Assembly: GCA_040390045.1 (NCBI GenBank)
Contig: JAZJZC010000001.1
Coordinates: 108,005-172,004 of the forward strand
Source: Patescibacteria group bacterium
Lineage (GTDB): Bacteria > Patescibacteriota > Minisyncoccia > Phycocordibacterales > SIBU01
Direction of reading: 5' to 3'
Length of the DNA: 64,000 nucleotides
The position numbers were made by a program, and so were the translations under genes. Under the pieces are notes generated by a model. It saw nothing but the letters and a program-made list of their open reading frames with translations. It was not told where the DNA came from and searched no databases. Shown here in pieces: positions 2,410-48,650 of this stretch; position 1 is the first letter of the stretch, and every line of letters begins with the position of its first letter.

Positions 2410-3948
2410 TTAGAAGATGCTCAGTAACTTTGATCCGAAGCTAACCATTTTCTGGCTCAAGGTTACAGTGGCGGCAGCCTTTACAACTGGCTTAGCTTGA
2501 GATGCCTTGAGAGCCTTGCCTCCCCCTCCAGTCTGAGGCAAGCCAGGATAAGTCTGAACAGGAGCTTGAACCGTCGGAGTAATTATTGGCGCTGGTACAG
2601 AATAGCTCGGTGAGCTCAACGAAGGAAGTACAATTGTGGGTGATGCTTGATATGTTGGACCAGCGAGCGATCGGCCAACGAACGTTGGACTAGAATCATA
2701 GGTTGGAGAACTTAGGGTATTCCCCGCTGTACCTTCTGTTGCGGCGTAGGTTGGTGAGCTCAAATTTGAACCAGCGTTACTTCCACTTGTATCATAATTT
2801 GGAGAACTTAATGAAGCACCGTTAATACCAGCTGCGGCAACATAACTTGGTGAACTTAAGGTAGCACCGTTATTACTTGCCGTAGTGTATGTGGCAGAGG
2901 ACAAGCTTCCACCATTAGAATTTTCATTTGTAGTATATGTTGCGGAACTCAAAGTGCCGCCGACAGTTGCTGTCGCAATATAGGTTGCGCCAGACAAAGT
3001 GGCGCCGTTGTTGTTTGATGCACTGTAGGTTGGGGAAGAGAGGTTGTTACCGTTAGTACTTGCAGAAGTTGTATAGGTTGCTCCAGAAAGAGTCTGACCA
3101 GAATTGCCTGGGTTGGCAACGTATGTAGCAGAGCTCAAAGTAACCCCGTTAGGGTTATTAGTCGAAGTGTAGGTCGGTGAGGAAAGATTTGTACCATTTA
3201 CGTTTGAATTTGCAACGTAGGTAGCCGAACTCAAGTTGGTACCGTTGACATTGCCTGTCGCGGTATACGTAGGAGAAGCTAAGTTGTTACCAGAGTTACT
3301 TCCTGAAGTTGTGTATGATGGAGAACTAAGGTTGGTACCGGTATTACTTCCTGAAGTACTGTAGGTCGGAGAAGCAAGATTGCTCCCAGAATTATTTCCA
3401 TTAGCAGTATAGGTAGCCGAACTCAAGGTTGTGCCGGTGGTGTTGTTTGTCGAGGTGTAGTTTGGTGAAGATAAATTAGTTCCGGAGTTACTTGAGTTAG
3501 AAACATACGTAGCTGAACTTAGAGTAGGGCCGGCAGGATTATTTGTTGCGTAGTAATTTGGTGAAGATAAGTTTGAACCGCTATTATTGGCCGATGTTGC
3601 ATACACAGGAGAAGTCAAAATATTTCCACCACTAGTTACTGTTGTTACGTACGTAACTGAAGATACAGTAGAACCATTCACGTTATTTGTAGCTGTATAG
3701 TTGGGAGAAGCTAAATTCTTACCAGTATTGTAAGAAGTTGTTGTATACCCTGGTGAAGCAAGACTGCCACCACCAGTATTGGTGTTCGCGACATAATTTG
3801 CAGCGGAACGTGAAGCGCCAGAAATATTGCTATTAGCAACATAACTTGGAGCGCTTAAAGAAGCACAGGCGCAATCAGCCTTACTTACTGCTGGTAAGAA
3901 AGCTATAAAAAGTATTGAAAAACCGATATTTATAAGGTTATTTTTCAT
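2410..3948 (-). CDS. Secreted tandem-repeat surface protein (about 27 repeats of a 16-aa unit G-x-N-L-S-S-P-T-Y-T-x-T-x-N-x-x) with a C-terminal LPQTG-like motif.
   Basis: N-terminal signal peptide MKNNLINIGFSILFIAFLPAVSKA. The 48-bp DNA tandem repeats are visible across about 2650-3800. The C-terminus reads YPGLPQTGGGGK, followed by a weakly hydrophobic basic tail. Confidence 0.6.
   Translation of the reverse strand: MKNNLINIGFSILFIAFLPAVSKADCACASLSAPSYVANSNISGASRSAANYVANTNTGGGSLASPGYTTTSYNTGKNLASPNYTATNNVNGSTVSSVTYVTTVTSGGNILTSPVYATSANNSGSNLSSPNYYATNNPAGPTLSSATYVSNSSNSGTNLSSPNYTSTNNTTGTTLSSATYTANGNNSGSNLASPTYSTSGSNTGTNLSSPSYTTSGSNSGNNLASPTYTATGNVNGTNLSSATYVANSNVNGTNLSSPTYTSTNNPNGVTLSSATYVANPGNSGQTLSGATYTTSASTNGNNLSSPTYSASNNNGATLSGATYIATATVGGTLSSATYTTNENSNGGSLSSATYTTASNNGATLSSPSYVAAAGINGASLSSPNYDTSGSNAGSNLSSPTYAATEGTAGNTLSSPTYDSSPTFVGRSLAGPTYQASPTIVLPSLSSPSYSVPAPIITPTVQAPVQTYPGLPQTGGGGKALKASQAKPVVKAAATVTLSQKMVSFGSKLLSIF
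2650..3800. repeat. In-frame 48-bp tandem repeats inside the surface-protein gene.
   Basis: The protein shows reiterated NLSSPTYT / TLSSATYV units throughout, and the nucleotide repeats can be seen directly. Confidence 0.6.
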
Positions 3949-4128: not shown

Positions 4129-4929
4129 TTGCACATTACACATATCTCTATGAAAAATCTGATCCTGAAGCTGGCGTTCAGCTTCCTCGCCCTCACCGCA
4201 ACCTTCACCAGCGTCCATGCGGGCTTCCGAGCTCCAGTCTGGAATGACCGATGCTACACCTGTCACGGCGGCACGCCAAGCATCTGGCCCGGAGCGCCGG
4301 GGAGTGGTTGTGGAGGCCTCGCGTACGCGATCGCCTGCGGGTTCGTCAAACCCGTCACAGCGCCTCCGGCATGCTCTAACTGCGCCGTGGTTACGGTCTG
4401 CGATCCCCCACTATCGGCACCGGTCTATTCGCCGGCTGGAGGACCGGATTGCGCCCCATCGTTATCGGCGCCAGTCTATTCACCGGCAGGTGGAGTAATC
4501 TGTTACCCCTCGTTGTCGGCTCCGGTCTACAGCGCACAGACAAATGTCTGCTGTGGCGAGCCACTGTCCTCGCCGACATACACTGCGGATACAAACACCT
4601 GCTGTGGAGGGTCATTATCAGCACCGGTGTACACCGCCAACGTGGTTCCGTGCGCGGTGGTTGTGACTCCCCCGCCACCTCAAGCCAAGCGGCCGGTTTT
4701 GGGCCTAGTATTTGACTACACCGGTCAATACATCCAGGTCAAGATCTCCTTGAAAAACGGAGACCCGAATGCGAAGTATTCGCTCGAGGCGGCGGCGGTC
4801 ACTGGAGGACAATGGGGAGTGGTTCCCGGCCAGAAAATATCGGCCAACGGAAATGGGGTCGGAGAGGTGAAGTTCCTCTACAACTCCACCTTTCCCTTCG
4901 CTCTCTTCAGGGCGAGATTGGATCAGTGA
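4129..4929 (+). CDS. Secreted Cys-rich repeat protein (3x PSLSAPVYSPAGG; CC pairs; one CYTCH motif).
   Basis: Signal peptide MKNLILKLAFSFLALTATFTSVHA. The repeated S-L-S-A-P-V-Y motifs resemble the LSSPTY units of the divergent neighbour gene. GC-rich (about 60%). Confidence 0.5.
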   Translation: MHITHISMKNLILKLAFSFLALTATFTSVHAGFRAPVWNDRCYTCHGGTPSIWPGAPGSGCGGLAYAIACGFVKPVTAPPACSNCAVVTVCDPPLSAPVYSPAGGPDCAPSLSAPVYSPAGGVICYPSLSAPVYSAQTNVCCGEPLSSPTYTADTNTCCGGSLSAPVYTANVVPCAVVVTPPPPQAKRPVLGLVFDYTGQYIQVKISLKNGDPNAKYSLEAAAVTGGQWGVVPGQKISANGNGVGEVKFLYNSTFPFALFRARLDQ

Positions 4930-4949: not shown

Positions 4950-4992
4950 CCCGAGGTTTGAGACACCACAATGTCTCGAACCTCGGTTTTTT
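4950..4992 (+). terminator. Rho-independent terminator.
   Basis: cccgaggtttgagaca...tgtctcgaacctcgg followed by tttttt. Confidence 0.55.
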
Positions 4993-5010
4993 CTTTGTAA
5001 AATTAATGCA

Positions 5011-20052: not shown

Positions 20053-21204
20053 ATGAAAAAAGATACTACTGCGAAAGTAAAGGACGGTTCAAGTGGAGCA
20101 GATATGATCGCGAAAGATCACGAGGAAAAAGTAGAAGAAGAAAGCTTGATGACACGTCTCATCAAGGAAACCGGCAATCCAGCCGCCGTTGGAGATTTGG
20201 TTGAGGGTACTGTTTTAAATATCGAAAAAGCTAAAGTGTTTGTTGACCTGTCGCCATTCGGCACGGGTATTATTTATGGACGGGAATACATCAACGCCCG
20301 AGATGTTATCAAAAAAGTAAGCATCGGGGACAAGATTGCCGCCAAGGTTGTCGATGTTGAAAATGAAGATGGTTATGTTGAACTCTCTCTTCGAGAAGCT
20401 CGACAGGCGATGATTTGGAGCGAGGCCGAAGCGGCTATTCGCGACAAGAAAACTTTAGAACTTTTGGTTAAGGAAGCTAACAAAGGAGGTTTGATTTTGG
20501 AATGGCAAGGCATTGCAGGATTCCTTCCTGCGTCACAATTGAAGCCTGAACATTACCCTCGCGTGGCTGAAGGCGATAAAGATAAGATTATCGAGGAACT
20601 CCGCAAGTTGGTTGGCGAACGAATTTCTGTCTGCGTTATTTCCGCCATTCCTAAAGAAGGTAAATTGATTTTCTCTGAGAAAAATCCTGAAACAAAAGAT
20701 AAAGAAAAGATTGTCGGTAAATATACTGTTGGCGATGAAGTCGGAGGTGAAATCACGGGCATCGTAGACTTCGGCATCTTCGTGAAAATCGAAGAAGGAC
20801 TTGAGGGCTTGGTGCACATTTCTGAAATCGACTGGGCACTTGTAGAAAACCCACGACTTTTGTACAAAGTCGGCCAGAAAGTAAACGTGAAAATAATTGA
20901 AATTAAGGAAGGAAAAATTTCACTTTCAATTAAAGCGTTGAAAGCAAACCCTTGGGTTGATGCCAGCAAGAAATACAAAAAAGATGATGTGGTCAAGGCG
21001 GTTATCATCAAATTCAACAAACACGGAGCCTTGGCTTCGATTGAAGAGGGTGTCGCCGGACTTGTTCACATTTCTGAATTTGGAACCGAAGAAAAATTGC
21101 GCGCCAATCTAGAACTCGGCAAAACCTACTCTTTCAAAATCACCTTCTTTGATGCGAAGGAGCAGAAGATGGCGCTGTCGTTTGCAGGTGAAAAGAAAGC
21201 CTAG
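20053..21204 (+). CDS. rpsA: 30S ribosomal protein S1 (four S1 domains).
   Basis: Repeated S1 OB-fold segments (GDLVEGTV..., GDKIAAKVVDV..., GEITGIVDFGIFVKI..., VKAVIIKFNKHGALASI...). Confidence 0.8.
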   Translation: MKKDTTAKVKDGSSGADMIAKDHEEKVEEESLMTRLIKETGNPAAVGDLVEGTVLNIEKAKVFVDLSPFGTGIIYGREYINARDVIKKVSIGDKIAAKVVDVENEDGYVELSLREARQAMIWSEAEAAIRDKKTLELLVKEANKGGLILEWQGIAGFLPASQLKPEHYPRVAEGDKDKIIEELRKLVGERISVCVISAIPKEGKLIFSEKNPETKDKEKIVGKYTVGDEVGGEITGIVDFGIFVKIEEGLEGLVHISEIDWALVENPRLLYKVGQKVNVKIIEIKEGKISLSIKALKANPWVDASKKYKKDDVVKAVIIKFNKHGALASIEEGVAGLVHISEFGTEEKLRANLELGKTYSFKITFFDAKEQKMALSFAGEKKA

Positions 21205-21233
21205 AGCTGAAAAAAAATTTTTTGATTAAACTG

Positions 21234-21268
21234 AAAACTCCGCCGCGACTACGTCGCGGCGGAGTTTT
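21234..21268 (+). terminator. Rho-independent terminator after rpsA.
   Basis: ctccgccgcgac-tac-gtcgcggcggag followed by tttt. Confidence 0.7.
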
Positions 21269-21317
21269 CTCTACTTATTTGCTTTTAATTTCGTTCTAGT
21301 TATTGTCATTAAAATAT

Positions 21318-21339
21318 TTTGTACGATATATCGTACAAA
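21318..21339. promoter_or_regulatory. Perfect 22-bp palindrome TTTGTACGATATATCGTACAAA, copy 1. It overlaps the putative promoter of the regulator gene.
   Basis: Exact palindrome. TTGTCA lies 17 nt upstream of the central ATATAT. Confidence 0.6.
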
Positions 21340-21363
21340 ATATTGTTGTGATACAATAACAAC

Positions 21364-21765
21364 ATGCCACATGTATCCAAACACCTTGTAGCTGAAAAGG
21401 TACTCCGCGAACTAGAGGAGCACATTATCGCTGTCTTGAGTGACACAGGTTTGAAAGCCAGAAACAAAATCTTCAAAGAAATACTAACAAAGACAGAGAG
21501 ACTGATGGTTGCGAAACGTCTGGCAATGATTTACTTGATACAGAAAGGGAGGGCGACGCACGAGATCAGCGAGATGTTGAAGGTTAGTCCTTCAACTGTA
21601 GCTCGTTTTGAGAACCAACTTGAGCAAAAGTGTTTCATACACACCGCTTCGTGGGTAAAAAATCACGTTGCCATGAATCGCGTTTTTAAACTTATTTTTA
21701 ACTTAGCTGCCGTTCCGTTTGAAGCCCAGAAAAAATCTCTCGGCCAAATGCTTGATGAAAACTAA
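21364..21765 (+). CDS. TrpR/YerC-like HTH transcriptional regulator.
   Basis: LMVAKRLAMIYLIQKGRATHEISEMLKVSPSTVARF helix-turn-helix. Small (133 aa). Confidence 0.5.
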   Translation: MPHVSKHLVAEKVLRELEEHIIAVLSDTGLKARNKIFKEILTKTERLMVAKRLAMIYLIQKGRATHEISEMLKVSPSTVARFENQLEQKCFIHTASWVKNHVAMNRVFKLIFNLAAVPFEAQKKSLGQMLDEN

Positions 21766-21788
21766 TTATTGAACATGTCGGTTCACTA

Positions 21789-21810
21789 TTTGTACGATAT
21801 ATCGTACAAA
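21789..21810. promoter_or_regulatory. 22-bp palindrome, copy 2.
   Basis: Exact TTTGTACGATATATCGTACAAA. Confidence 0.6.
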
Positions 21811-21870
21811 ATCAATTTGACACCTTGAATTGTTCACGAAAGAAGAGACAAAAAAAACGGCTCTGCCCAA

Positions 21871-21892
21871 TTTGTACGATATATCGTACAAA
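21871..21892. promoter_or_regulatory. 22-bp palindrome, copy 3.
   Basis: Exact copy, embedded in a roughly 60-bp direct repeat shared with copy 4. Confidence 0.6.
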
Positions 21893-21902
21893 GTAGAGAT
21901 TT

Positions 21903-22532
21903 TTATAGAATAATTTCGTCACCTTTTCCGATCAATTCCACCTTCCCATCTCGCATCAAAATCCCTTGCTCATCGGTAAGAATTTTTACCGGAAGTGGGG
22001 TTTGAGAAATTTTTTCCTTCAAAATCTGATCATACTCTGGTTTGTAATGAACCGTCATAAGAAATGGAACCAAACTCATGGCGGTCAAATCGGTAAGATT
22101 GTAATGACTGTATTTATCCTGATGTTTCCAAAGCGCCATTTCTATTGTTGGACAGGCAACATAACTGCCGGCACTTGCTCCCATGTAAATTAAACCTTTC
22201 GGCAACAACTCTTTTATAATTTTTTCAAAACCACTCTGCCTAATTGACTTCATGAGTAAAAACGTATTACCACCTTCAACGTACACTAATTCAGTTTTTT
22301 CTAAAACTTTTTTTAAATCATCCCCTGTCGTGTGATCCAAATCTATTTCCGTGCAATCATAGTTGTGTTCTTTGAAAAACTTTCGATTCCTTTCAAAGTA
22401 GGCTGTATCAGAAACTCCTTTCGAAGCAGTTGTAATGTGAACCATCTTGAAAGTATTGAAAGGCCGCCCCAAAACTTCAGGAGGGTTGTTCATCAAAAAC
22501 CGAGCGGTGGAAAGCAATAAAATTGTACTCAT
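21903..22532 (-). CDS. Peptidase S51 (dipeptidase E-like).
   Basis: VYVEGGNTFLL motif and a Ser-nucleophile region GASAGS. Confidence 0.65.
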   Translation of the reverse strand: MSTILLLSTARFLMNNPPEVLGRPFNTFKMVHITTASKGVSDTAYFERNRKFFKEHNYDCTEIDLDHTTGDDLKKVLEKTELVYVEGGNTFLLMKSIRQSGFEKIIKELLPKGLIYMGASAGSYVACPTIEMALWKHQDKYSHYNLTDLTAMSLVPFLMTVHYKPEYDQILKEKISQTPLPVKILTDEQGILMRDGKVELIGKGDEIIL

Positions 22533-22599
22533 GTTTTTAAATTCTAGCTGGCTGTTTCATTACTCAAGAAAGAAGACGTACCAAAACAACCCTAGCCAA

Positions 22600-22621
22600 T
22601 TTGTACGATATATCGTACAAA
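22600..22621. promoter_or_regulatory. 22-bp palindrome, copy 4.
   Basis: Exact copy. Confidence 0.6.
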
Positions 22622-22631
22622 TTGCAAATAC

Positions 22632-23297
22632 TTATAATTTACTTTGATTGAAAATAAGATACTTCCCTTCACTAACAACCTCAACTTCCTCATCAACAAC
22701 TTTAAGTGCGGACTCATCGTCAAGAGCATATATTGGTTCTTTAATTTTTTCTGCAACCTTAGTGAGATTTTCTTTTGTATTCTTTGGTGAATCTGGAGAA
22801 TGTAAATGAGGGTAAAAATAAAAAGGAACCAAACCAAGTGCGTCATTGTCATCATACCCAGTAAGTTCTTTATAGACCGAACGTTTGTTACTCATCAGAA
22901 GTGTTGGTGCAGTAACAATACTGCCGGCGCTTATCCCAGCATATACCTTAGTTTTTAAGAGTTCAGGCAAAAGCTCCTTCAGGCCAGATTTTTTCATCCA
23001 ATACATCAAGTGAGCTGAAGTTCCTCCTGAGAAAAACAAAACATTAGCCTTCTCAAGTTTTGGTAACCAAATATCTTGAGGTAATGCAGAAATATCTACA
23101 ATATCAATAAATTTGAGACCAAGATTTTTGAGATTGGATAAATCATCTATAAACCAACTTTTGTCGCCCCTACTGACGTTCATTGCAGTAGGAATAAAAG
23201 CGAGGTGAATCTCACTCGCTGGCTTTCCGACTAAATCAATAAAGGCCTCGGCAATCGACTTGTTGCTAATACCGTTTGAAGTAAGAAATAATTTCAT
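22632..23297 (-). CDS. Peptidase S51 (dipeptidase E-like) paralog.
   Basis: FFSGGTSAHLMYWM and GISAGS. Tandem paralog of 21903..22532. Confidence 0.65.
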   Translation of the reverse strand: MKLFLTSNGISNKSIAEAFIDLVGKPASEIHLAFIPTAMNVSRGDKSWFIDDLSNLKNLGLKFIDIVDISALPQDIWLPKLEKANVLFFSGGTSAHLMYWMKKSGLKELLPELLKTKVYAGISAGSIVTAPTLLMSNKRSVYKELTGYDDNDALGLVPFYFYPHLHSPDSPKNTKENLTKVAEKIKEPIYALDDESALKVVDEEVEVVSEGKYLIFNQSKL

Positions 23298-27907: not shown

Positions 27908-29149
27908 TTAGATCATCTTGAGCACTTCAGCTTCACTCAACATTTTTGATTGGCTTTCGGTTCTGCCTTTAACTTCAATCACGCCCGCCTTGACTGTTTT
28001 ATCGCTGACCACAAGCCGCCATGGTAGACCCAACAAATCCGAATCAGCAAATTTTTCTCCGGCGCGAAGATCTCGATCGTCATACAAAACCTCAACTCCC
28101 ATCTTATTTAATTTCTCGTACAACTCGTCTGCGTATTTTTTAGCGTCACCTTCCATAGAAAGTGAGATGAGGTGAACTTTAAACGGCGCAACTGATTCTG
28201 GCCAGACAATGCCTTTTTCATCGGCGAGAACTTCCACAATCGTACCCATGAGTCTCCCGAGCCCGATACCGTAGCAACCCATAATAACGGTTTTCTTTTC
28301 ACTTTTTTCGTCCATGAAATGGAGCTCAAGTGGTTCAGAAAAATTAACTCCGAGATTAAAAATATTTCCAACCTCAACGGCTTTTTTCTTCACTAAATCT
28401 TTATTGCCACAATTAGGACAAGCGGATACTTCCTTGAAAATTTCATCGTTAATAGCCATTTTACATTTCTCGCAAATATAAATGACATCTTCTCCTGCGT
28501 CAGTCACCGTCTGAAATTCATCTGAGTATTTTGAAAAACTTCCACCACTTGAAGACGTGATGTACGTCTGTGAACCAATTCCAACTGCATCGTAAATATT
28601 TTTGTACGCAGTTTTTGCTCCCTCATAAAAAGCTGAGTGTTCCTCCTGAGTTCTCGAAAAAGAATACATATCTTTCATCAAAAATTCTCGGCCGCGAATG
28701 ATGCCACTTTTGGCTCGCGCTTCATTTCTAAATTTCGTTTGGATTTGGTAAATATACAACGGCAAATCTCTCCACGAACGAACATAATCTTTCAAAAGAT
28801 TGGTGAGCTCGGCTTCGTGACTGTATCCAAGCCCGACCTCGTTGTCATTTTTTAATTTAGTTTTAAACCAATTGTCGACAACCGCGTCACTCCATTTGCC
28901 AGCTTTCTCCCAAAGATTTTTGTCTTGAAGAACCGTGAGCATCACTTCCTGTCCGCCAACCGCATTCATTTCCCTGCGAATAATGTTGCCAATTTTGTTT
29001 ATAACTCTAAGGCCGAGCGGCAGATATGAATAAACTCCAGCCATTTCTTTGTGAATAAATCCTGCGCGAATGAGCAGTTCGGCATTTTTTGCCACTTCAT
29101 CTTTTGGAGCCTCTTTGCGAGTTTTTGTAAAAAGTTTTGATTGGCGCAT
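27908..29149 (-). CDS. proS: Prolyl-tRNA synthetase, short form without the INS editing domain.
   Basis: The N-terminus MRQSKLFTKTRKEAPKDEVAKNAELLIRAGFIHKEMAGVYSYLPLGLRV aligns with bacterial ProRS. 413 aa implies no insertion domain. Confidence 0.75.
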   Translation of the reverse strand: MRQSKLFTKTRKEAPKDEVAKNAELLIRAGFIHKEMAGVYSYLPLGLRVINKIGNIIRREMNAVGGQEVMLTVLQDKNLWEKAGKWSDAVVDNWFKTKLKNDNEVGLGYSHEAELTNLLKDYVRSWRDLPLYIYQIQTKFRNEARAKSGIIRGREFLMKDMYSFSRTQEEHSAFYEGAKTAYKNIYDAVGIGSQTYITSSSGGSFSKYSDEFQTVTDAGEDVIYICEKCKMAINDEIFKEVSACPNCGNKDLVKKKAVEVGNIFNLGVNFSEPLELHFMDEKSEKKTVIMGCYGIGLGRLMGTIVEVLADEKGIVWPESVAPFKVHLISLSMEGDAKKYADELYEKLNKMGVEVLYDDRDLRAGEKFADSDLLGLPWRLVVSDKTVKAGVIEVKGRTESQSKMLSEAEVLKMI

Positions 29150-29306: not shown

Positions 29307-30407
29307 CTAAAAGAGCTTAACGATATCGTGATAGGTAATAAATAGCATCAGTAAAATAAGCAACCCGAATCCTGCCGTGTTTAATCCTTGAATCAATTTC
29401 GGTTTGAGCGGCGAGCCTTTAATAGCTTCAATGAGGACCACAAAAATTCTACCGCCATCGAGCGCCGGCAGTGGTAAAAGATTAATAACAGCCAAATTTA
29501 TTGAAAGAAGCGCGGTGAAAAAAATCAAATACGAGAAACCAAGATTTTTCGCGTCGCCAACCAACGAGACCATACCGATGGGACCCGAGACCGTAGACAA
29601 ATCAGCTCGTCCAAAAATCGCATCTTTGAAAAAATCAAAAATTCCCAGCGCCACATTTACAAACAAACGCTCAGTCATAATTCCTGCTTGCCAAAAAGCT
29701 TTAAAAATTGGCAACTTGATGTAGCCGATCATGTCCATGCCGATTCCGATAGCTACCGCGTCCCCAACGATTCCTTTTTTCGCTTCAATCTGCAGTTGAG
29801 AAATTTTTGACCCGCGCTGTATAGACATCTCAATTGGACCCTTGCTTTTCATAATAAAATCGTGAACCGTGTCTGGATTTAATTTTTCCGTCATTTGAGC
29901 CGTTGTGGTTTTTAATGAAAGAATCGCGTCTCCCGCTTTCAACCCTGACAATTCTGCTGGTGAATTTGGCAAAATGGAAGTGACAGTTAATTGTACATTA
30001 GTCAGTTGTGAAGCATTGGTCGTGTCGAGGGCTGTCGGCAAACCGAACATAAAACCTAGAGAAATAATAAGCCACGCAAAAATAACATTAAACAAAACGC
30101 CGCCAGAGAGCACAGCCGCTTGAACGAAACTACTTTTATGCGCCAAACTTCGACTTTTATTTTCAACCACTCCATTGGGGCTTTCTAAACTTTCAGCGTT
30201 CTCACCGAAAATTCTCACAAACCCGCCGAACGGTAAGAGGTTCAGCGAGTAGATAGTCTCACCAATTTTTTTACTAAAAAGTGTGGGAGGAAATCCCAAA
30301 CCAAATTCATCTACTCTCACTCCATTTTTTTTGGCAATCAAAAAATGGCCAAGTTCGTGAACGAGGACGAGCAACGCTAAAATTATTAGAAAAATTATTA
30401 TGTTCAT
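29307..30407 (-). CDS. rseP: RIP metalloprotease RseP (site-2 protease).
   Basis: HELGHFLIAKKNGV zinc motif, a PDZ segment and C-terminal LDGG. Start taken at MNIIIFLIIL; the track extension runs into an intergenic repeat. Confidence 0.75.
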   Translation of the reverse strand: MNIIIFLIILALLVLVHELGHFLIAKKNGVRVDEFGLGFPPTLFSKKIGETIYSLNLLPFGGFVRIFGENAESLESPNGVVENKSRSLAHKSSFVQAAVLSGGVLFNVIFAWLIISLGFMFGLPTALDTTNASQLTNVQLTVTSILPNSPAELSGLKAGDAILSLKTTTAQMTEKLNPDTVHDFIMKSKGPIEMSIQRGSKISQLQIEAKKGIVGDAVAIGIGMDMIGYIKLPIFKAFWQAGIMTERLFVNVALGIFDFFKDAIFGRADLSTVSGPIGMVSLVGDAKNLGFSYLIFFTALLSINLAVINLLPLPALDGGRIFVVLIEAIKGSPLKPKLIQGLNTAGFGLLILLMLFITYHDIVKLF

Positions 30408-30417
30408 TTTTAAAAAG

Positions 30418-30506
30418 GGTTTAGGGTAGAGGGCACAGGGTTTAATCAAAAAAGATTTCTTGTATTTCAAAAACTACACCCTTAACCCTAACCCCTATAC
30501 CCTAAC
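30418..30506. repeat. Heptad-repeat inverted-arm element (AGGGTNN type).
   Basis: GGGTTTA GGGTAGA GGGCACA GGGTTTA at 30418-30447. AT-rich core. Inverted arm cacccttaaccctaacccctataccctaac at 30477-30506. Confidence 0.6.
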
Positions 30507-42113: not shown

Positions 42114-42188
42114 TCCCCGGTGGCGCAGTGGTAGCGCAGTCGCCTGTTAAGCGATTGGTCGTAGGTTCGAATCCTACCCGGGGAGCCA
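42114..42188 (+). tRNA. tRNA-Asn (anticodon GTT), CCA encoded.
   Basis: Cloverleaf drawn by hand. Acceptor tccccgg/ccgggga, D-arm gcgc-agtggta-gcgc, anticodon stem gtcgc/gcgat with loop cTGTTaa, T-arm gtagg-ttcgaat-cctac, discriminator G, CCA. Confidence 0.85.
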
Positions 42189-43685
42189 AATAGGACTGTC
42201 AGCTAGTTCTAGGACTAGATTGAACGGAGAACGCAAGGTAAACCCTAGCGTTTTTTCGTTTACAGTCGGGTTCTGAAGTATGAAGTTAAGAAAGGCCCTT
42301 TGCTCGGCTGTTTCAGAACCCTCGAAGATTTGTCTTGCACGGCGGGCAACAGAAAGGACAGTGGCCACAGTAGTCTGATACTCGTAGTCGGCTTTTGTAT
42401 GTTCCTCTAGTTCGATGTTAAGAAGCTGCAACTTGTCCGCATACTCTTGATGCTTTCTGTCATAGGTTTCCTTAGTAATACTCTGGTCAAGGAAGGCCTC
42501 TAGTAATCTGTCATCCTTCATTTTGATTTGCTCGTACTCACTGCGGATGCGCTTAATCTGGGCCTTATGAAAGACAATTTCGGTTTCGGTGCTCTTCCGC
42601 AGTTCATCCACCAGCTCGCTCTGTACCTCGTCTGTAATGCCCTCAAACCGCTCCAGTACCTCGTATACAGGCTTGAGCAAGTCCTTTTCAGGTACATACA
42701 CTCTCTTGCAGATACCCTTAGCGTTGGTACAGGAATAATAGGTAAAAGTCAGCCCGCTTTTCTTGGTCTTGGTTTCGCCGCTCATAGAGCAACCACAGTT
42801 TTGACACTTCAGCAGACCCTTAAATATAAAATCTTTGGAGCGACCCATATAAGGCGACACTCGACGCTTCAAACGTATTTCTTGGCACTTATCAAAGAGT
42901 TCTTTATCAACCAAGCGCGGATATTTATGAGGATAGGAACCATACTTTTTCGACATAGCGATGCCACAATAAAAAGTATCCTTGAGGATATTTTCAACAC
43001 CACTCTTCGAGAGTTTGTTACCCTTGAGCGTTCGTAAACCAAGCTCGGTCATTTTGATACGGATAGTTTCAAGCGAGTGGTTTCCTGTCGCGTATAGCTC
43101 AAACATCTTTTGAATGAGATGTCCTCTTTCGGGGTCTATAATTATGTCCTTTCGTAATCTTTTTTCTACATCCAAAGACACATTCAAATAACCCAAACGA
43201 ACACTGCCCGTCCACTCACCACTTCTTCGTTTTTGTTCAAAAGCTCTTTTGACGTTGTCGCCGATTGCATCAGAGTAATACTTGGCCAAACCTAAGCTCA
43301 TACCAAATTGAAACTTCTCAACCGCAGACATCTGATTATTTATAACTTGCCCATCAGATACAAAGTGAAGCTCTATTTTGTCTGCTACCGCCATCTCGTA
43401 GAGGGTGCCAACCCTTTTATCAAAAACGCTTCTTGAAAGGCGGTCTACCTTATCAAAACAAACGGCAACTTTTTCTTTTTTCGCTACCTCTTCAACAGAC
43501 TCAACTAACTTATCAAACTCATCTCTCTTATCTTTGTACGCACTTTCGTCAAAGCTATACTTTTCTATAATCGTAAAGCCTTTCTTAGCACAATAATCGT
43601 TTATGCGCTTATCCTGCGCTGGCAAAGAATTGCCCGCTTCTTTTTGTTCCTCTGTTGATACTCGTGAGACGATTATTGCTTTCAT
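42174..43685 (-). CDS. Large serine recombinase (integrase).
   Basis: N-terminal resolvase domain MKAIIVSRVSTEEQ with the catalytic Ser, a recombinase domain, a zinc-ribbon region (CQNCGC...C) and a C-terminal coiled-coil. 503 aa. Confidence 0.8.
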   Translation of the reverse strand: MKAIIVSRVSTEEQKEAGNSLPAQDKRINDYCAKKGFTIIEKYSFDESAYKDKRDEFDKLVESVEEVAKKEKVAVCFDKVDRLSRSVFDKRVGTLYEMAVADKIELHFVSDGQVINNQMSAVEKFQFGMSLGLAKYYSDAIGDNVKRAFEQKRRSGEWTGSVRLGYLNVSLDVEKRLRKDIIIDPERGHLIQKMFELYATGNHSLETIRIKMTELGLRTLKGNKLSKSGVENILKDTFYCGIAMSKKYGSYPHKYPRLVDKELFDKCQEIRLKRRVSPYMGRSKDFIFKGLLKCQNCGCSMSGETKTKKSGLTFTYYSCTNAKGICKRVYVPEKDLLKPVYEVLERFEGITDEVQSELVDELRKSTETEIVFHKAQIKRIRSEYEQIKMKDDRLLEAFLDQSITKETYDRKHQEYADKLQLLNIELEEHTKADYEYQTTVATVLSVARRARQIFEGSETAEQRAFLNFILQNPTVNEKTLGFTLRSPFNLVLELADSPIWLPG

Positions 43686-43686
43686 A

Positions 43687-44454
43687 TTATTCTTTCGCTT
43701 TTGAGACGTAGTCTACAATTTTATCCCAATCCAACTGGTCTTTTGTGTAGAACAGCTCAATTAAATCTTTCGTCATTTCGTTGATTTTCTTTACGTAGGT
43801 TTCTTTGAAAGTATCGTCTCGTTTCTTCACTTCCTTATCGAGCGGCTTAATCAAGTTTCGATAAAGGTCTTTATCACCAGAAATTAATTCCCAAAAGTTT
43901 TGCCCGCAGAGTTTGGTGTAGTCAAGCTCACTATCTACCTTATGCTTTTTAAGAGGCACGTTATCTTTCCCATAAATACACCCGTTCACACAAACCATTT
44001 CTTGGGTCTTGCCTTCTTCGCGTAGGATACGCCGCGCTTCCTTAAGATTGCTTCTCATACCACTAATCTGGTCAGCGTTTCCCCAATTTGGGCCTGATTT
44101 TATGCCAACAATGTAGAGTTTGTTATCTCTTTCAAAGATTAAGTCCACACTCTTAAACTTATTCTCTTCAGCTTTTAGGCCCTTAAAAACAGTATGATTG
44201 ATATTGATAGCCAGATTCTCTAGCAGGTCTCCAAAAATTGTTTCCTCTTGTGAGGATAGAAACGCGTTTAATATATCGTTTACTAAGTCGCCAGCCGTTT
44301 GTATATTCTTGGCCTTAAATAGGTAGGGATTTTTTCTACGCATCACATCCTTAAGTTTTATGCTCTTCAGCTTCTCTATGCGTTTATCATAGAAAGGTTG
44401 AATCACATCTGATGCTACAAACTTATCCAATTCTTCGTAATTAATTTTTTTCAT
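43687..44454 (-). CDS. Putative type II restriction endonuclease, partner of the adjacent methyltransferase.
   Basis: No clear family match. It is tightly coupled to the methyltransferase gene (2-nt spacing). VDLIFERDNKLYIVGIKSG is a possible PD-(D/E)xK-like segment. Confidence 0.35.
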   Translation of the reverse strand: MKKINYEELDKFVASDVIQPFYDKRIEKLKSIKLKDVMRRKNPYLFKAKNIQTAGDLVNDILNAFLSSQEETIFGDLLENLAININHTVFKGLKAEENKFKSVDLIFERDNKLYIVGIKSGPNWGNADQISGMRSNLKEARRILREEGKTQEMVCVNGCIYGKDNVPLKKHKVDSELDYTKLCGQNFWELISGDKDLYRNLIKPLDKEVKKRDDTFKETYVKKINEMTKDLIELFYTKDQLDWDKIVDYVSKAKE

Positions 44455-44455
44455 A

Positions 44456-45328
44456 TTATTTTTGTGATTCTTGAAAGTTAGTAATTGATAATTCGTAGTA
44501 TTCAGGGAGTATCTCTATACCGATGGAACTTCGCCCTAATTGACCAGCAACAAGAGAGGTAGTGCCAGACCCTAAAAATGGGTCAAGCACGGTATCACCT
44601 GGTTTAGTAAAAAGTTTAATAAACCATTCGGGCAAGGATGCAGGAAAAGCCGCGCTATGGTTTTTATTTCCGCTTTCTGTCGCCATACTTACAACATTAG
44701 TCGGGTATGCCATATCCCGTCCGACCCAACTAGATACATTTTTTCCAAACCCGCTTCCGACTTTTGAATTATCTCTTCGCTTGTCAGTCTCACTTAAGTT
44801 TTTTAAGCGAGTTTTAGCCCAATCTCCCATTGGAACCATAACTTCATCTTGGTACATATTAAAGCTCTTATCCTTATTGAACTGCAACAATCGCTCCCAA
44901 GCATCTCGAAACCTGTTCGGCCATTTACCAGGGAAGCAGTTTTTCTTATGCCAGATAAACTCTTCAGTCCAAAGCCAGCCGTGCTTTCTCATTTCGATAA
45001 TTAACTCCATTACATACGTATGGCGCTCTCCGTTTGAAACCTTTTCTTTTATATTCAAAATAAACGTACCGTCTTTTTTAAGTACCCTCAATAACTCTTT
45101 TGATATTGGAGTAAACCACTCTACATATTTCTCTGGCTTTATACCGCCGTAAGTCTTGGCTCTCTGGTCTGCATAGGGAGGAGAAGTGACAATCAAGTCC
45201 ACTGAATTATCTGGCAATTCTTTGAGTGCCTCGACACAATCACCATTAATAAATCTTGCCTCAACAGATTTATCATTCGCAAAAAGCGTATTTGATTTTA
45301 TTACTTTTGCTTTCATATCTTTTTGCAT
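44456..45328 (-). CDS. DNA methyltransferase (N4-cytosine or N6-adenine, beta class).
   Basis: Motif IV DLIVTSPPY comes before motif I DPFLGSGTT. Confidence 0.8.
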   Translation of the reverse strand: MQKDMKAKVIKSNTLFANDKSVEARFINGDCVEALKELPDNSVDLIVTSPPYADQRAKTYGGIKPEKYVEWFTPISKELLRVLKKDGTFILNIKEKVSNGERHTYVMELIIEMRKHGWLWTEEFIWHKKNCFPGKWPNRFRDAWERLLQFNKDKSFNMYQDEVMVPMGDWAKTRLKNLSETDKRRDNSKVGSGFGKNVSSWVGRDMAYPTNVVSMATESGNKNHSAAFPASLPEWFIKLFTKPGDTVLDPFLGSGTTSLVAGQLGRSSIGIEILPEYYELSITNFQESQK

Positions 45329-45498
45329 TTCTTAAGAAAGGAATTGAACTCCTCTTTATCAATACGAAACTCTTTGCCAATCTTGTAGGCTTGTAACCGA
45401 CCTGCTTTTATATAGCGGTAAATTGTCATAATGTTTACCTCTAGTATCGTTGCCAGGTCTTCCGCTTTATAAAATGGTTTGTCTTTTTTTGTGTCCAT
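45313..45498 (-). CDS. Excisionase/AlpA-like HTH DNA-binding protein.
   Basis: 61 aa. LATILEVNIMTIYRYIKAGRLQAYKIGKEFRI is an excisionase-family HTH. Confidence 0.6.
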   Translation of the reverse strand: MDTKKDKPFYKAEDLATILEVNIMTIYRYIKAGRLQAYKIGKEFRIDKEEFNSFLKKCKKI

Positions 45499-45535
45499 AA
45501 TTACCTAATTATTATACTTTACTTTGCTTTACATA

Positions 45536-46638
45536 TCAATTTGGCACCTGTGGATAATCCCCATACTTATACGTCTTAAACTCATTAAGCTTAGTGTCTA
45601 TTTGCATAACCCAATTCCTAATTCCATTCTTAGTAACAAACTCGCTAACCAGCTTTAAGTCATTGGCAATTCGGTACCAGGTTCGCTCTCCTGATTTTTT
45701 AGAGACTACCGAACGCAGCTCTCTTACTCCATCTTTCGCAAGAAGTAATAATCCTGCGAGATAGATTGCTTGCTTTGGCTTTATATTTTTCTGTTCCATA
45801 AAAATGCTTTGCAAAATATCTTTGTTACTTATGGAAATGGATAGTAGAGCACTGTTTCCTTCTTTGATAACTGCTTGCCAATAATGCGTCACTACCGCCT
45901 TACTCAATTTTGAGCTAAAGACATCTTGGAAAGTTGGATTTTGAGAATAGCCTAACTTCTTAAGTACGCTGTTCATTTTCTGTTTACGAACTAGCCGAAC
46001 TTCAAAACGGATTATTTCTGGCAACCTCTTAACACCTGAAAGGATGCTTCTCTGGTAATAGGTCTGGTCTCTATCAATAGCTCTTTTCTCGCTGGCGAGT
46101 ATGTCTGCGACCTTGTCATAGATAATGAACTCGTGAGATGCGGTATGCGCATACAAGCTTTGGCCGTCATTGGTATAGCGTGAGCGGGTAAAATCAAAAC
46201 CTTTCTAAGATTTACTTTATTTATTTCACTGATTAAATAATTTGTCGTATAGCCATCTTCTAGGTGGATATTCTTTGAGAAGTGCACTGAACTTACTACT
46301 GCATTTTTGATACTCTCTTCGGAGACAATGAGTCCCATTGTTTTAAGACGTTCTTGTAATGTACTGACTGCTTTAGGAAAATCAGCATCTTCTAATTCGT
46401 CCAGGTTATTAAGAAAGAGAAGTTTGGAAACTGAAAACTCTATCCTTACGTTTGCGTTCTGCTTAAACCACTTGCCGTAACTTGTAAGCCGTGGAAAGTA
46501 GTAGCCAGTTTTCAAATCGCTTTTAGAGGGATTCTTTATGTACCTAGAATAGCGCTCGGTTCGTGATTGTAAGTCCCAATCATCCGCGATATTTTGTATC
46601 TCGCTCCAGGGAATTGAAAGGCAGATAGAATCAATCAT
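45536..46638 (-). pseudogene. Rep_trans-like replication initiation protein interrupted by a frameshift (two overlapping ORFs, 46012..46638 and 45536..46156).
   Basis: The downstream part contains HEFIIYDK...RFEVRL, recalled from Rep_trans-type initiators. The two ORFs overlap by 145 nt in different frames. Confidence 0.4.
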
Positions 46639-47107
46639 TTTTCTCTCGTTGCTTCTTATAAAGATGCGGATTTATTCGTTTATCAACTTTTATGAGCAGC
46701 GCAAAAAAGCCGACAAGGTTGCGCTTGTCTTCAGGCGTTAATTTCTCCTGATTCTTTTTTAATTTTTCTTGCTTTTGTACGCTCAACATAAAAGCCCGCT
46801 CTTGGCTTGGCAGGTTTCCATTGGCGTGGCGACCCGCGAAGCCAAGAAAGGGCTTGCGTACATTTTGCCAATGAAATTACCGCCGTTATTTAAGAACGGA
46901 CTTTTGTTTGATAAACAAAAAATTGCCCGTACAATCGCTATCCTCTACTGGGCAGTTGGCAGATATTTCTGCGCTACTTCAGCAATTCGGATACGATTAT
47001 ATTGGGCAATTACGGTTGAGATGGTAGGCGCGGTTTTCTCTCCGCGGCTATGTAATTGATTACTTTAAGTGTAGCGAGACGAAACGGGCGCGTCAATAAA
47101 AAGCGCT

Positions 47108-47168
47108 GTTATACAGTGACCAAGCGCGCCATACTCTGTTATCCAGGATTAAAGTCGGTTATCCACAG
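47108..47168. promoter_or_regulatory. Cluster of DnaA-box-like 9-mers.
   Basis: TGTTATACA at 47108, TGTTATCCA at 47137 and an exact TTATCCACA at 47159-47167. They lie in the divergent region between the Rep-like gene and the AbiEii gene. Confidence 0.4.
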
Positions 47169-47192
47169 AAAGAAAAAACCAGGCCCAAAAAA

Positions 47193-48650
47193 TTGCTATC
47201 ACTGACAGAAATCGCTACAATTCACTTGACAATGATTTACAAAGAAGAAATCGAAGCAAAAGCAAAAGAGTTTGAAATCCATCCCTCGAATGTCGAAAGG
47301 GACTATGTTTTTGGATGGCTGCTTTTTGGCATCTTCACCGCGAGTGGACTGAAGGATAGAATCTTTCTCAAGGGCGGAAATGCCCTCCGAAAAGGCTACT
47401 TTGAGAATACTCGCTTTTCGAGCGACTTGGATTTTGGAATACCTGACGACATAAGCCAGGAAGAATTGCTGTCCGAAATAAATAAAGTCTGCGAGCTTGC
47501 TCAAGAGAAGTCGGGAGTGGTCTTTGTCAAAGATGACAACAAAGTTGAAGAAAAGTTTACCGCCAGTGAAGCGCCACTGCCTGACCTAAAGGTCTATGAG
47601 GTGCGGGTTTACTTCAAAGGTTTTAATGGAGAGTCCGACCATATAAAAATAAGAATCTCAATGGACGTCACGCGTTTCGATAAAGTTCTTCTACCTCTTC
47701 AGACTGTGAAGTTGATACATCCTTATTCAGATGCGGCAGACTTAGTTTGTGACATTCAGTGTATGAAGCTCGAAGAGATTATCGCTACAAAACTGAAATG
47801 CCTTATACAACGACAGCACGCGCCTGACCTTTTTGACTACGCTCACTCCATCAAACTTTTAGGCGGTACTTTGAACAAGGAAGAGGTGGTGGAGACCCTC
47901 GTCAAGAAAACAATTTTCAATCGTAACCCTTTCATCCTCAAAGGCATTTTGAACGGCACAGCGTTTACCTATTTCAGAACAGAGTGGGCTAAATCCGTTA
48001 TCTGCGCGAAACAACTTGCTATGAATGTTGAGGATGCCATCGCGGCTTTCATTGCCGACCTCGATATTCTTTTTGCGAACTACACCGATAACGGATTTGC
48101 TCAATTCGTCTACTTCAGTCCTGAAGTGCGAGCAAAGATTATGCACGCGGGGCGCACGCAGACGCTAATGAAAGTTCGGTATAAGGGCTATGACAGAATC
48201 ATTGAACCGTATTCTCTAAAATATCTTGAAAAGAAAAGTGGTGAGGCCCGTGAGTATTTCTATCTTTATAATTGTAGTGGTGGCGAGAGCAAACCAGATA
48301 CTCGTTGCTTTCTTCCTGAACGTATTGAGTCCATCGAAAACACCGAAGAGAAGTTTACGCCTCGGTTTCAAATTGAATTGTCAAAAGCAGGAGAGTTACC
48401 AGAAAATCGCTATCTCTTTGACCCAAACAGACCTACTCCTGCTCCACGGCCGCGTGTTTCGAGAAGTACCAGTCCAAGAGCGCCGCGTGCGCGCGGTTTT
48501 TCTAGTGGAATAAAGTACATATATAAATGCACTTCTTGCGGCAAGACATCCACGAAAACTACGATGGATGGAAATCTGCGTGCTCATAAGGCCCCTGGTG
48601 GTTATGCTTGTGGCGGCAGATTTGGTTATTACGTTCGGACAAAGTACTAA
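47193..48650 (+). CDS. AbiEii/DUF1814-type nucleotidyltransferase fused to a WYL-like domain and a C-terminal Zn-ribbon-like tail.
   Basis: N-terminal FLKGGNALRKGYFENTRFSSDLDFG, the AbiEii signature. Middle region KVRYKGYDRIIEPYSLKY...EYFYLYNC...RCFLPERIESIE, WYL-domain-like. C-terminal CTSCGK...H...C. Confidence 0.6.
   Translation: MLSLTEIATIHLTMIYKEEIEAKAKEFEIHPSNVERDYVFGWLLFGIFTASGLKDRIFLKGGNALRKGYFENTRFSSDLDFGIPDDISQEELLSEINKVCELAQEKSGVVFVKDDNKVEEKFTASEAPLPDLKVYEVRVYFKGFNGESDHIKIRISMDVTRFDKVLLPLQTVKLIHPYSDAADLVCDIQCMKLEEIIATKLKCLIQRQHAPDLFDYAHSIKLLGGTLNKEEVVETLVKKTIFNRNPFILKGILNGTAFTYFRTEWAKSVICAKQLAMNVEDAIAAFIADLDILFANYTDNGFAQFVYFSPEVRAKIMHAGRTQTLMKVRYKGYDRIIEPYSLKYLEKKSGEAREYFYLYNCSGGESKPDTRCFLPERIESIENTEEKFTPRFQIELSKAGELPENRYLFDPNRPTPAPRPRVSRSTSPRAPRARGFSSGIKYIYKCTSCGKTSTKTTMDGNLRAHKAPGGYACGGRFGYYVRTKY

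Follow-up and report, generated by a model that had tools for sequence, protein, structure and literature searches.

The 64-kb stretch of Patescibacteria DNA analysed here (contig JAZJZC010000001.1; referred to below as the window) contains four exact copies of a 22-bp palindrome, TTTGTACGATATATCGTACAAA, around a gene for a 133-residue protein with a TrpR-type helix-turn-helix (HTH). Judged by which genes and sites keep company in related loci, the palindrome goes with the TrpR-fold gene and not with the S51-family peptidase genes beside it, and it is very likely the recognition site of the adjacent protein, taking cognate binding alone. This had been proposed in a first-pass annotation of the sequence and is borne out by two features kept across homologue loci, the bracketing of the gene by palindromes and a 14-bp core. 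As to function, our best explanation is a global, autoregulated DNA binder of the TrpR family, for which the first site would serve autorepression and the other three would act as roadblocks, boundaries or partners in looping, the locus being one node of a Patescibacteria-wide system. We hold this fuller reading with moderate confidence.

The association between gene and site was traced by fetching homologue loci via the protein (12 loci for seven proteins of 80–40% identity, plus homologues of 31% and 28%). In all of them palindromes lay on both sides of the regulator gene, in differing gene neighbourhoods, and the invariant 14-bp core TACGATATATCGTA was kept in all except that of the 28% homologue. 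The locus with 80% protein identity (L001) has seven sites, four upstream and three downstream of the gene, and no S51 gene; that with 72% identity (L004) has one site per side with pth immediately adjoining; that with 68% identity (L007) has two plus two sites among insertion sequence (IS) elements. Homologues of 50–40% identity (L008, L010 and L011) are bracketed in obg-gatB, rbfA/infB and hsp20 neighbourhoods and share TACGATATATCGTA, as does the bracketed 31% homologue (L133), while both sites of the bracketed 28% homologue (L134) show one and the same change in the right half of the core. About 14 further bracketed regulator genes were present among the genome-scan matches listed, and 9–10 in the metagenome scan. 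Across the loci listed, the upstream bracket site lies 0–50 nt from the ATG and the downstream one begins 1–76 nt past the stop, with the stop codon sometimes within its arm. In one locus (L185, 453–803), the regulator gene is followed directly by four tandem 111-bp units with one palindrome each; the inner two are identically flanked, and the array is iteron- or centromere-like. In the Saccharibacteria-like contig of L133, the bracketed regulator, read by eye, apparently sits between two tRNA genes (3850–3920 and 4455–4530).

The copies in the window start at 21318, 21789, 21871 and 22600. A scan allowing up to three mismatches found no further match to TTTGTACGATATATCGTACAAA in the 64 kb, where shuffled sequences lead one to expect none; the 16-mer core with up to three mismatches yielded no excess over chance in the remaining 62 kb, and isolated half-sites elsewhere in the window were not above chance. 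The confinement of four identical 22-mers to 1.3 kb of the window, reported earlier, is thereby confirmed, as is the placing of two copies within longer perfect palindromes of 28–32 bp. These are site 1 (21318–21339; palindrome of 32 bp, 21313–21344), the presumed autoregulatory operator, and site 4 (22600–22621; palindrome of 28 bp, 22597–22624). Site 2 (21789–21810) follows the regulator's stop, as had been said, by 23 nt and is the downstream bracket seen in nearly all homologue loci. Site 3 (21871–21892) lies 10 nt past the stop of the first S51 gene (21903–22532, minus strand), in a convergent intergenic region and 82 bp from site 2. Site 4 lies 10 nt past the stop of the second S51 gene (22632–23297, minus strand) and also 67 nt upstream of the ATG of the first.

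The regulator gene (21364–21765, plus strand) encodes a protein that matches Pfam PF01371 (Trp_repressor) over residues 24–89 at 36.8 bits (cutoff 27), and most homologues carry PF01371 in precomputed annotation. Its AlphaFold2 model is all-helical, with a mean confidence score (pLDDT) of 78 that exceeds 90 across the HTH. The best Foldseek matches of this model were E. coli TrpR (1trr/1tro, probability 1.0), with the TrpR-like structures 3g1c, 3kor and 3frw also found (probability about 1.0, target-normalised TM about 0.7). On this modelling the regulator has the TrpR fold. The protein scored far below the cutoffs of both the TrpR equivalog (NCBIfam TIGR01321; 20.3 bits, cutoff 67.25) and the YerC/YecD (HisR) family (TIGR02531; 17.5 bits, cutoff 42.2), so that of the earlier label 'TrpR/YerC-like' the first half stands, on the fold, and the second is not supported. 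PADLOC defence-system profiles gave weak generic HTH matches only, on which ground a link to defence was rejected.

The window protein is identical to one from a Patescibacteria metagenome-assembled genome (MAG), and its homologues range from 85% to 28% identity. An exhaustive profile search at E≤1e-10 returned 1352 clusters (50% identity), nearly all of 125–145 residues. The alignment of the family shows an invariant TxTE..M..KR block and a recognition helix, SPSTV, that hardly varies, which fits the invariant DNA core; no single residue-to-base rule linking the protein to the base at ±8 was evident. The N-terminus MPHxS is invariant in the protein of all 47 aligned homologues, with varying codons. 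Repressors do not usually have so invariant an N-terminus, which might form an arm that reads the central ATATAT or, speculatively, provide a catalytic N-terminal proline as in Fpg/Nei. In the profile alignment to E. coli TrpR, residues T42, R52, T78 and R81, which are invariant or nearly so across the family, fall on T44, R54, T81 and R84. As we take these four TrpR residues to line the tryptophan pocket, their conservation makes a small-molecule corepressor, possibly an amino acid, plausible for the regulator. In TrpR, T81 and R84 are DNA-contacting residues (PMC9413887).

The arrangement at the regulator's own promoter suggests that the gene is autorepressed. An extended −10 element, TGaTACAAT, can be read at 21349–21357 (plus strand), exactly 6 nt before the regulator's ATG, and has equivalents, each 6 nt from the ATG, in L001 (TGcTATTAT), L004 (TGtTATGAT; both at 4988–5003 of the respective locus) and L007 (TGaTACAAT). 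Throughout the window clade ~10 nt separate the upstream site from the extended −10, and no Shine-Dalgarno sequence precedes the regulator's ATG. Given this 6-nt spacing of the extended −10 from the ATG and the lack of a Shine-Dalgarno sequence, the regulator mRNA is probably leaderless, starting at the ATG. Site 1 spans −46 to −25 relative to the ATG, which would be the transcription start (21364), and so takes the place of the −35 element; within the window clade this placement with respect to the promoter is conserved. Other clades have the site directly against the ATG, with its arm providing the −10, for instance CGTATATTAT-6 nt-ATG in L083, so that the 6-nt rule holds in distant clades too. 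Either geometry is the one expected of an autorepressor. The promoter proposed earlier, TTGTCA (21303–21308) followed after 17 nt by ATATAT, does exist, and site 1 does overlap a promoter, but its −10 is poor and the conserved TGaTACAAT is the better one.

In form, the site also agrees with published TrpR-family operators. In intragenic sites, two-fold complementarity greatly exceeds expectation as far as ±10. Because significant symmetry reaches that far, the functional core is put at ~20 bp (TTGTACGATATATCGTACAA), which is the size of TrpR-family operators. The central ATATAT is invariant and symmetric. The bases at −12 to −10 agree more within genomes (identity 0.55) than between them (0.36); they are common to the regulator-adjacent and the dispersed sites of one genome and are lineage-specific. 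Farther out, the arms differ among the sites of one genome yet remain complementary. A larger element, similar to a miniature inverted-repeat transposable element, was rejected, as the flanks of 277 sites were alike only between orthologous loci or in true tandem arrays. A variant site class, CCTTACGATA[T/C]ATCGTAAGG, occurs in the same genomes as the main class (L058 6830–6855, L118 7367–7392, L119 1528–1553, L186 2102–2127); its centre is sometimes asymmetric and its arms are long and complementary, and a paralogous protein may recognise it.

The view that the four copies form a private, local operator set was not supported by comparison with relatives, in which the same sequence is dispersed genome-wide, including inside genes. 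A scan of one genome per species (596 Gb) with TRTACGATATATCGTAYA as query gave at least 120 loci. The Patescibacteria among them included Saccharibacteria, Paceibacterota/Parcubacteria, Zambryski-, Taylor-, Lloyd- and Kaiserbacteria and others, with at least 3–8 sites on different contigs of individual MAGs among the matches listed. Among those same matches, perfect-core sites flanked the regulator gene in 41 cases and lay inside long open reading frames (ORFs) in 38; the others were tandem intergenic (27), convergent (8), divergent (5) or at locus edges (11), and about 45% of the dispersed copies were intragenic. A complete metagenome scan found the exact 22-mer in 89 stretches, 9–10 of them with the regulator; the other ~80 have solo sites away from any regulator or S51 gene. 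On metagenome contigs of 58–164 kb it occurred about once per 90 kb, a density conditioned on at least one copy being present, so that the true abundance should be tens per genome or fewer. The first-pass annotation had named hundreds of dispersed copies unrelated to the regulator as the outcome that would make the palindrome a generic repeat; copies do not number hundreds, and the tie to the protein family holds within Patescibacteria, and only there, in the loci examined. A phage link was rejected as well, since 2.9 million viral contigs gave only nine single matches.

Outside Patescibacteria the core, on its gene contexts, is an unrelated occurrence. An hmmsearch found no TrpR-like gene near the non-Patescibacteria matches to TRTACGATATATCGTAYA listed, and these matches adjoin PadR genes (profile-confirmed) or MarR-, GntR- and HigBA-like genes (by eye). 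A 'YerC box conserved across phyla' was therefore discarded, the matches in Bacillaceae, Paenibacillus, Chloroflexi and others adjoining unrelated regulators. Three Bacillaceae genomes have a 26-bp palindrome, ATGTTATACGATATATCGTATAACAT, ~40 nt upstream of a small PadR-family gene; in L069 the copy falls at the corresponding point within an ORF that was over-called. In an 'archaeon' MAG a ATGTTATACGATATATCGTATAACAT site with an imperfect outer end lies 31 nt from a PadR-like gene (the four loci being L022 7391–7416, L069 3535–3560, L125 2248–2273 and L084 2619–2644). PadR is thus a different regulator family on the same 18-bp core. In several Dehalococcoidia/Caldilineaceae (L049, L050, L060, L112 and L128), TTGTACGATATATCGTACAA overlaps the start of a HigB/RelE-like toxin and HTH-antitoxin pair, and these Chloroflexi copies are probably that pair's own operator. 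Marine bacterium AO1-C (L126, 264–5795) has six copies of a ATACGATATATCGTA[CT]AAAAA-like sequence in 8 kb, most of them between successive genes, which form a different, denser family.

The intragenic copies are in frame and are translated as VRYIVQ, YDISY or TIYR. Host genes with Pfam support encode leucyl- and arginyl-tRNA synthetases (LeuRS, ArgRS), PheT, UvrA, MurD, MiaA, TsaD, YchF, family 4 (GT4) glycosyltransferases, a methyltransferase and a reverse transcriptase; a threonyl-tRNA synthetase (ThrRS), an aspartyl-tRNA synthetase (AspRS)-like gene and UvrC were read by eye. The site occupies the same codon in LeuRS orthologs of three genomes, in ArgRS of Zambryskibacteria and Saccharibacteria, and in MurD of Paceibacterota and Kaiserbacteria. 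Among YchF, MiaA, MurD and UvrA orthologs it also occurs at different positions or just outside the gene, and such differently placed sites often coincide with an insertion of 3–10 residues relative to an ortholog without the site. In the GT4 glycosyltransferase, the full 22-mer (FVRYIVQ) lies at codon 69–99 of full-length ORFs in 11 orthologs, which are 36–72% identical to the reference copy in L065 and have freely diverged flanking codons; these orthologs were found through the site itself, which brings ascertainment bias. Of the 29 independent intragenic positions, a disproportionate share falls within the first 40% of the gene (4, 15, 6, 3 and 1 by quintile). A Saccharibacteria reverse transcriptase (RVT_1) has an in-frame palindrome at the same codon in two genomes (L029 713–1762 and L048 5923–6921). 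The Saccharibacteria LeuRS of 955 residues (L014 3925–6792, minus strand; also L154 and L127) contains an alpha/beta-hydrolase domain (Abhydrolase_1, residues 250–346) inserted between the catalytic and editing domains.

In the reading we prefer, the regulator would bind the 22-mer as a symmetric dimer, as TrpR-family proteins do, and, with site 1 in place of the −35 element of a leaderless promoter, would repress its own synthesis. Sites 2–4, located 10–23 nt past the stops of the regulator and the two S51 genes, would be further high-affinity binding points, which may either block RNA polymerase, as a boundary or roadblock, or act jointly with site 1 through looping. The symmetry of the site would let a roadblock or boundary work in both directions. 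The same protein family and site would be used across Patescibacteria at about tens of places per genome or fewer, namely at gene ends, at 5'-proximal positions inside housekeeping genes and at some promoters. Roadblock action is plausible from the positions of the sites: known roadblock operators are biased toward the 5' part of genes, as are the intragenic sites here.

Several observations weigh against this reading. Counting sites in 1.25 Mb, there were 249 perfect cores against eight with one and 12 with two mismatches, which is unusual for a transcription-factor regulon. Intergenic sites are complementary to ±18 (0.44–0.49 at ±14 to ±18, where 0.29 is expected) and form perfect palindromes of up to at least 42 bp, more than a single dimer should be able to read. 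The universal site right after the regulator's own stop is without standard explanation. The dispersed intergenic sites fall into convergent, tandem and divergent types in background proportions, so that they show no promoter preference, and genes with a site ≤100 nt after the stop (71) outnumber those with one ≤100 nt before the start (42). By our own count there are ~5–6 independent recurrences of gene families among the intragenic sites, against ~6 by chance on a rough estimate; being so close to chance, they do not demonstrate a conserved regulon. Clustering the 42 genes with an upstream site by family gave singletons apart from the regulator's own neighbours (a pfkB-like kinase and fba), on which ground a conserved promoter regulon was rejected; no his genes were seen at or near sites. 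The near-perfect copies, lack of promoter preference, long arms and post-stop site strain a plain transcription-factor model and keep three alternatives alive.

The first of these, which we consider unlikely, is that the protein organises the chromosome or acts at a centromere-like locus, as a site-specific binder of the kind represented by ParB-parS, Noc-NBS, SlmA-SBS and MatP-matS, with a cluster nucleating at its own gene. Perfect, 'digital' sites without promoter preference are what such a binder would use, as is a core that is invariant across the superphylum while its flanks drift, and many of the sites are in frame within essential genes, some at the same codon in orthologs of 36–72% identity. 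There are also clusters and tandem arrays of sites by the gene (seven in L001; 4 × 111 bp in L185), and these resemble the sopC and parC centromeres, which adjoin the genes for their binding proteins. The fold, however, is that of TrpR and not of ParB, TetR or MatP, and no ParA-like or other conserved partner gene adjoins the regulator in the loci examined, where the neighbours vary. Moreover, the 5' bias of the intragenic sites and the tight placement after stops point to transcription. As an origin or terminus signal, the GC skew in the window is uninformative, being dominated by gene orientation and an island; such a signal was rejected because the break at 46 kb is an integrated element.

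The long arms could instead reflect a REP-like (repetitive extragenic palindromic) structural repeat, forming hairpins or cruciforms that serve as 3'-end stabilisers or terminators or are simply hairpin-prone spreading DNA; the flanking of the regulator gene on both sides would then parallel that of REP-associated tyrosine transposase (RAYT) genes. We regard this as rather improbable. The arms of intergenic copies are indeed complementary far past the core, in a site-specific manner, giving palindromes of 26 to at least 42 bp, although such arms might also result from neutral, palindrome-templated mutation next to a perfect core under selection, and intragenic copies are symmetric only to ±10. 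The four window copies fold as RNA at −9 to −15 kcal/mol, and sites are preferentially placed just after stops and between convergent genes. However, the A/U-rich stems are followed by A-rich sequence with no U-tract, and a pattern scan for intrinsic terminators that detected the terminator of the upstream S1-domain gene (21233–21269) detected none of the four palindromes; with Rfam 15 covariance models nothing reached the gathering score, the two hits below it being put down to chance. The would-be loop, ATATAT, is invariant and symmetric, which a dimer on duplex DNA would need and a hairpin would not. The coincidence of some intragenic copies with insertions of 3–10 residues relative to orthologs without the site is a further point in favour of this alternative, but copies number tens and not hundreds, and the regulator, 133 residues and all-helical, matches HTH families only and has no HUH/Y1 transposase domain.

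A third alternative, distinctly improbable in our view, is that site, gene and site form a mobile cassette, relocated or excised in one piece, in which the palindromes would be recombination sites and the solo copies footprints or empty sites. One point in its favour is locus L160: S1 (83% identical) and pth (63% identical) are separated there by a solo site and no regulator occurs in the 14.5-kb locus, in contrast to the site-gene-site arrangement of the window, L001, L004, L007 and L164. The solo palindrome in L160 (9152–9173) is either an 'empty site' or the product of deletion between two bracket sites, and simple deletion between identical repeats of 22–26 bp can indeed leave a solo site. 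Similarly, RseP and a class-II aminoacyl-tRNA synthetase are adjacent in the window (29307–30470 and 27908–29149) and in L068 but are split by site-gene-site in L017, L038, L093 and L098. The different neighbourhoods of the regulator gene in different lineages, the stop codon sometimes inside a palindrome arm, and the variable accessory genes and IS elements that gather at the locus would all fit mobility. On the other hand, no recombinase or transposase is associated with the cassette, the regulator is an HTH domain only, and a perfect palindrome has no polarity for ordered recombination; the neighbourhood is also stable within lineages, with S1...pth retained in five relatives.

Weakest is the original local model, a dedicated regulator of the pth-S51-S51 unit with four private operators: all four window copies do lie within 1.3 kb of the regulator and adjoin these genes, and site 4 precedes one S51 gene by 67 nt, but relatives keep regulator and sites without S51 genes, the sites follow stop codons instead of occupying S51 promoters, the exact 22-mer recurs at ~80 other metagenome loci away from regulator and S51 genes, and the S51 paralogs, at 28% identity, show no recent duplication of the unit, so that this model is largely refuted and very improbable.

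The layout of the locus was otherwise as first described, including pth and the S51 genes on the minus strand. It begins with the S1-domain protein gene (20053–21204, plus strand) and its canonical terminator, located by the same pattern scan, and ends with pth (minus strand), beyond the second S51 gene. The neighbourhood from S1 to pth is conserved in the window clade, and the genes in between vary. Paralog 1 (209 residues) is one such variable neighbour and no conserved part of the system; a 74%-identical ortholog sits at the equivalent place in L164, the closest relative. Paralog 2 has 221 residues. Neither S51 protein reaches the PepE equivalog cutoff; nor is a special tie of the sites to S51 peptidases supported, as relatives have sites without S51 genes. 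The ~60-bp direct repeat reported at the 3' ends of the two S51 genes is real as a 63-nt match of 76% identity, but the shared palindrome accounts for 25 nt of this and the similarity of the flanks is weak (21/60 and 23/60 matches, background 15.3 ± 3.4). Together with the 28% amino-acid identity of the paralogs, this rules out a recent duplication of gene plus site as a unit.

Elsewhere in the window, an integrated mobile element (42174–48650), with which the GC-skew break at ~46 kb coincides, encodes a 503-residue serine recombinase, a 290-residue DNA methyltransferase with a 255-residue partner (a restriction-like pair), and a 485-residue protein that by eye resembles an AbiEii-type nucleotidyltransferase. 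It also contains two ORFs of 206–208 residues, overlapping by ~145 nt in different frames, that could be a single gene with a frameshift.

Systems made up of a TrpR-family protein and a palindromic operator are known as a kind. Not described in the literature searched are this subfamily, a core invariant down to ~30% protein identity, the obligatory bracketing, and in-frame sites in essential genes; the search found no paper with the core sequence in a relevant context or linking a TrpR-like protein to Patescibacteria. A stronger claim is possible but doubtful, namely that this is a Patescibacteria-wide, genome-embedded site system new for the TrpR fold, with a few tens of perfect sites, arrays at its own gene, a role in elongation, boundaries or chromosome organisation, and a relocatable gene-plus-sites cassette. 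Patescibacteria (the candidate phyla radiation, CPR) account for a large part of bacterial diversity and have tiny genomes whose gene regulation is almost unstudied. The family offers a ready, testable protein-DNA pair, with at least 1352 clusters at 50% identity and a 14-bp core that, among the homologues examined, is constant but for the 28% one. If the dispersed sites are roadblocks or boundaries, they would constitute a simple layer of global control in minimal cells, possibly tied to the supply of amino acids from the host; if they organise the chromosome, the TrpR fold would here underlie a novel class of nucleoid proteins with site specificity. In both cases the site provides a practical handle for DNA affinity purification sequencing (DAP-seq) or chromatin immunoprecipitation (ChIP), for building reporter or repression tools for Saccharibacteria genetics, and for identifying DNA as patescibacterial.

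Among known systems, the closest are other members of the TrpR family, whose operators are 20-bp palindromes, often before the regulator's own gene; the TrpR motif is TGTAcTnGTnnACnAgTACA and the HisR/YerC motif cacTTTAnnnnnnTAAAgtg, with the box cacTTTAn6TAAAgtg (PMC9413887). With E. coli TrpR the regulator shares the fold, the position of its presumed operator in its own promoter, palindrome arms of the form TGTA...TACA, and conserved residues at the positions of T44, R54, T81 and R84. It differs in being only ~16–18% identical and below the equivalog cutoff, and in having 35–40 extra C-terminal residues and the invariant MPHxS N-terminus. Here the arms stand 2 bp nearer each other (TGTA-N10-TACA, against N12 in TrpR), and, unlike TrpR, the present system has another site past the stop of the regulator gene, intragenic and gene-end sites, and no link to aromatic amino-acid genes. 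HisR boxes were defined by comparative genomics, an approach of the same kind as ours (PMC9413887). HisR (YerC/YecD) of Firmicutes is a small TrpR-family repressor with a 20-bp palindrome and is often autoregulatory, but its motif is different (cacTTTAnnnnnnTAAAgtg) and it controls his genes and transporters from their promoters; no such conserved regulon is seen here.

Outside the TrpR family, the proposed roadblock has precedents in CcpA-cre, PurR and CodY, whose high-affinity palindromes a few hundred nucleotides inside genes stop elongating RNA polymerase. The 5'-proximal intragenic sites are alike, whereas the site sets of CcpA, PurR and CodY are graded, degenerate and promoter-centred and those described here are near-perfect, with many after stops or between convergent genes. 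ParB-parS, Noc-NBS and MatP-matS resemble the present system in relying on a short and perfect palindrome that is kept across very great phylogenetic distances, and parS sites, like these, occur in few to tens of copies, often intragenic and clustered near the gene for the binder. In contrast to ParB-parS, there is here a TrpR fold, no NTPase partner and clear overlap with the promoter of the protein's own gene. Finally, REP/RAYT systems (REPINs) share the flanking of a gene on both sides by palindromes that its product is thought to recognise, dispersed intergenic copies at gene ends, and arms that are variable yet complementary. RAYTs, however, are HUH tyrosine transposases, where the protein here is a bare HTH protein, and REPs are imperfect and present in hundreds of copies, where the palindrome here has an invariant core, a symmetric centre and a low copy number.

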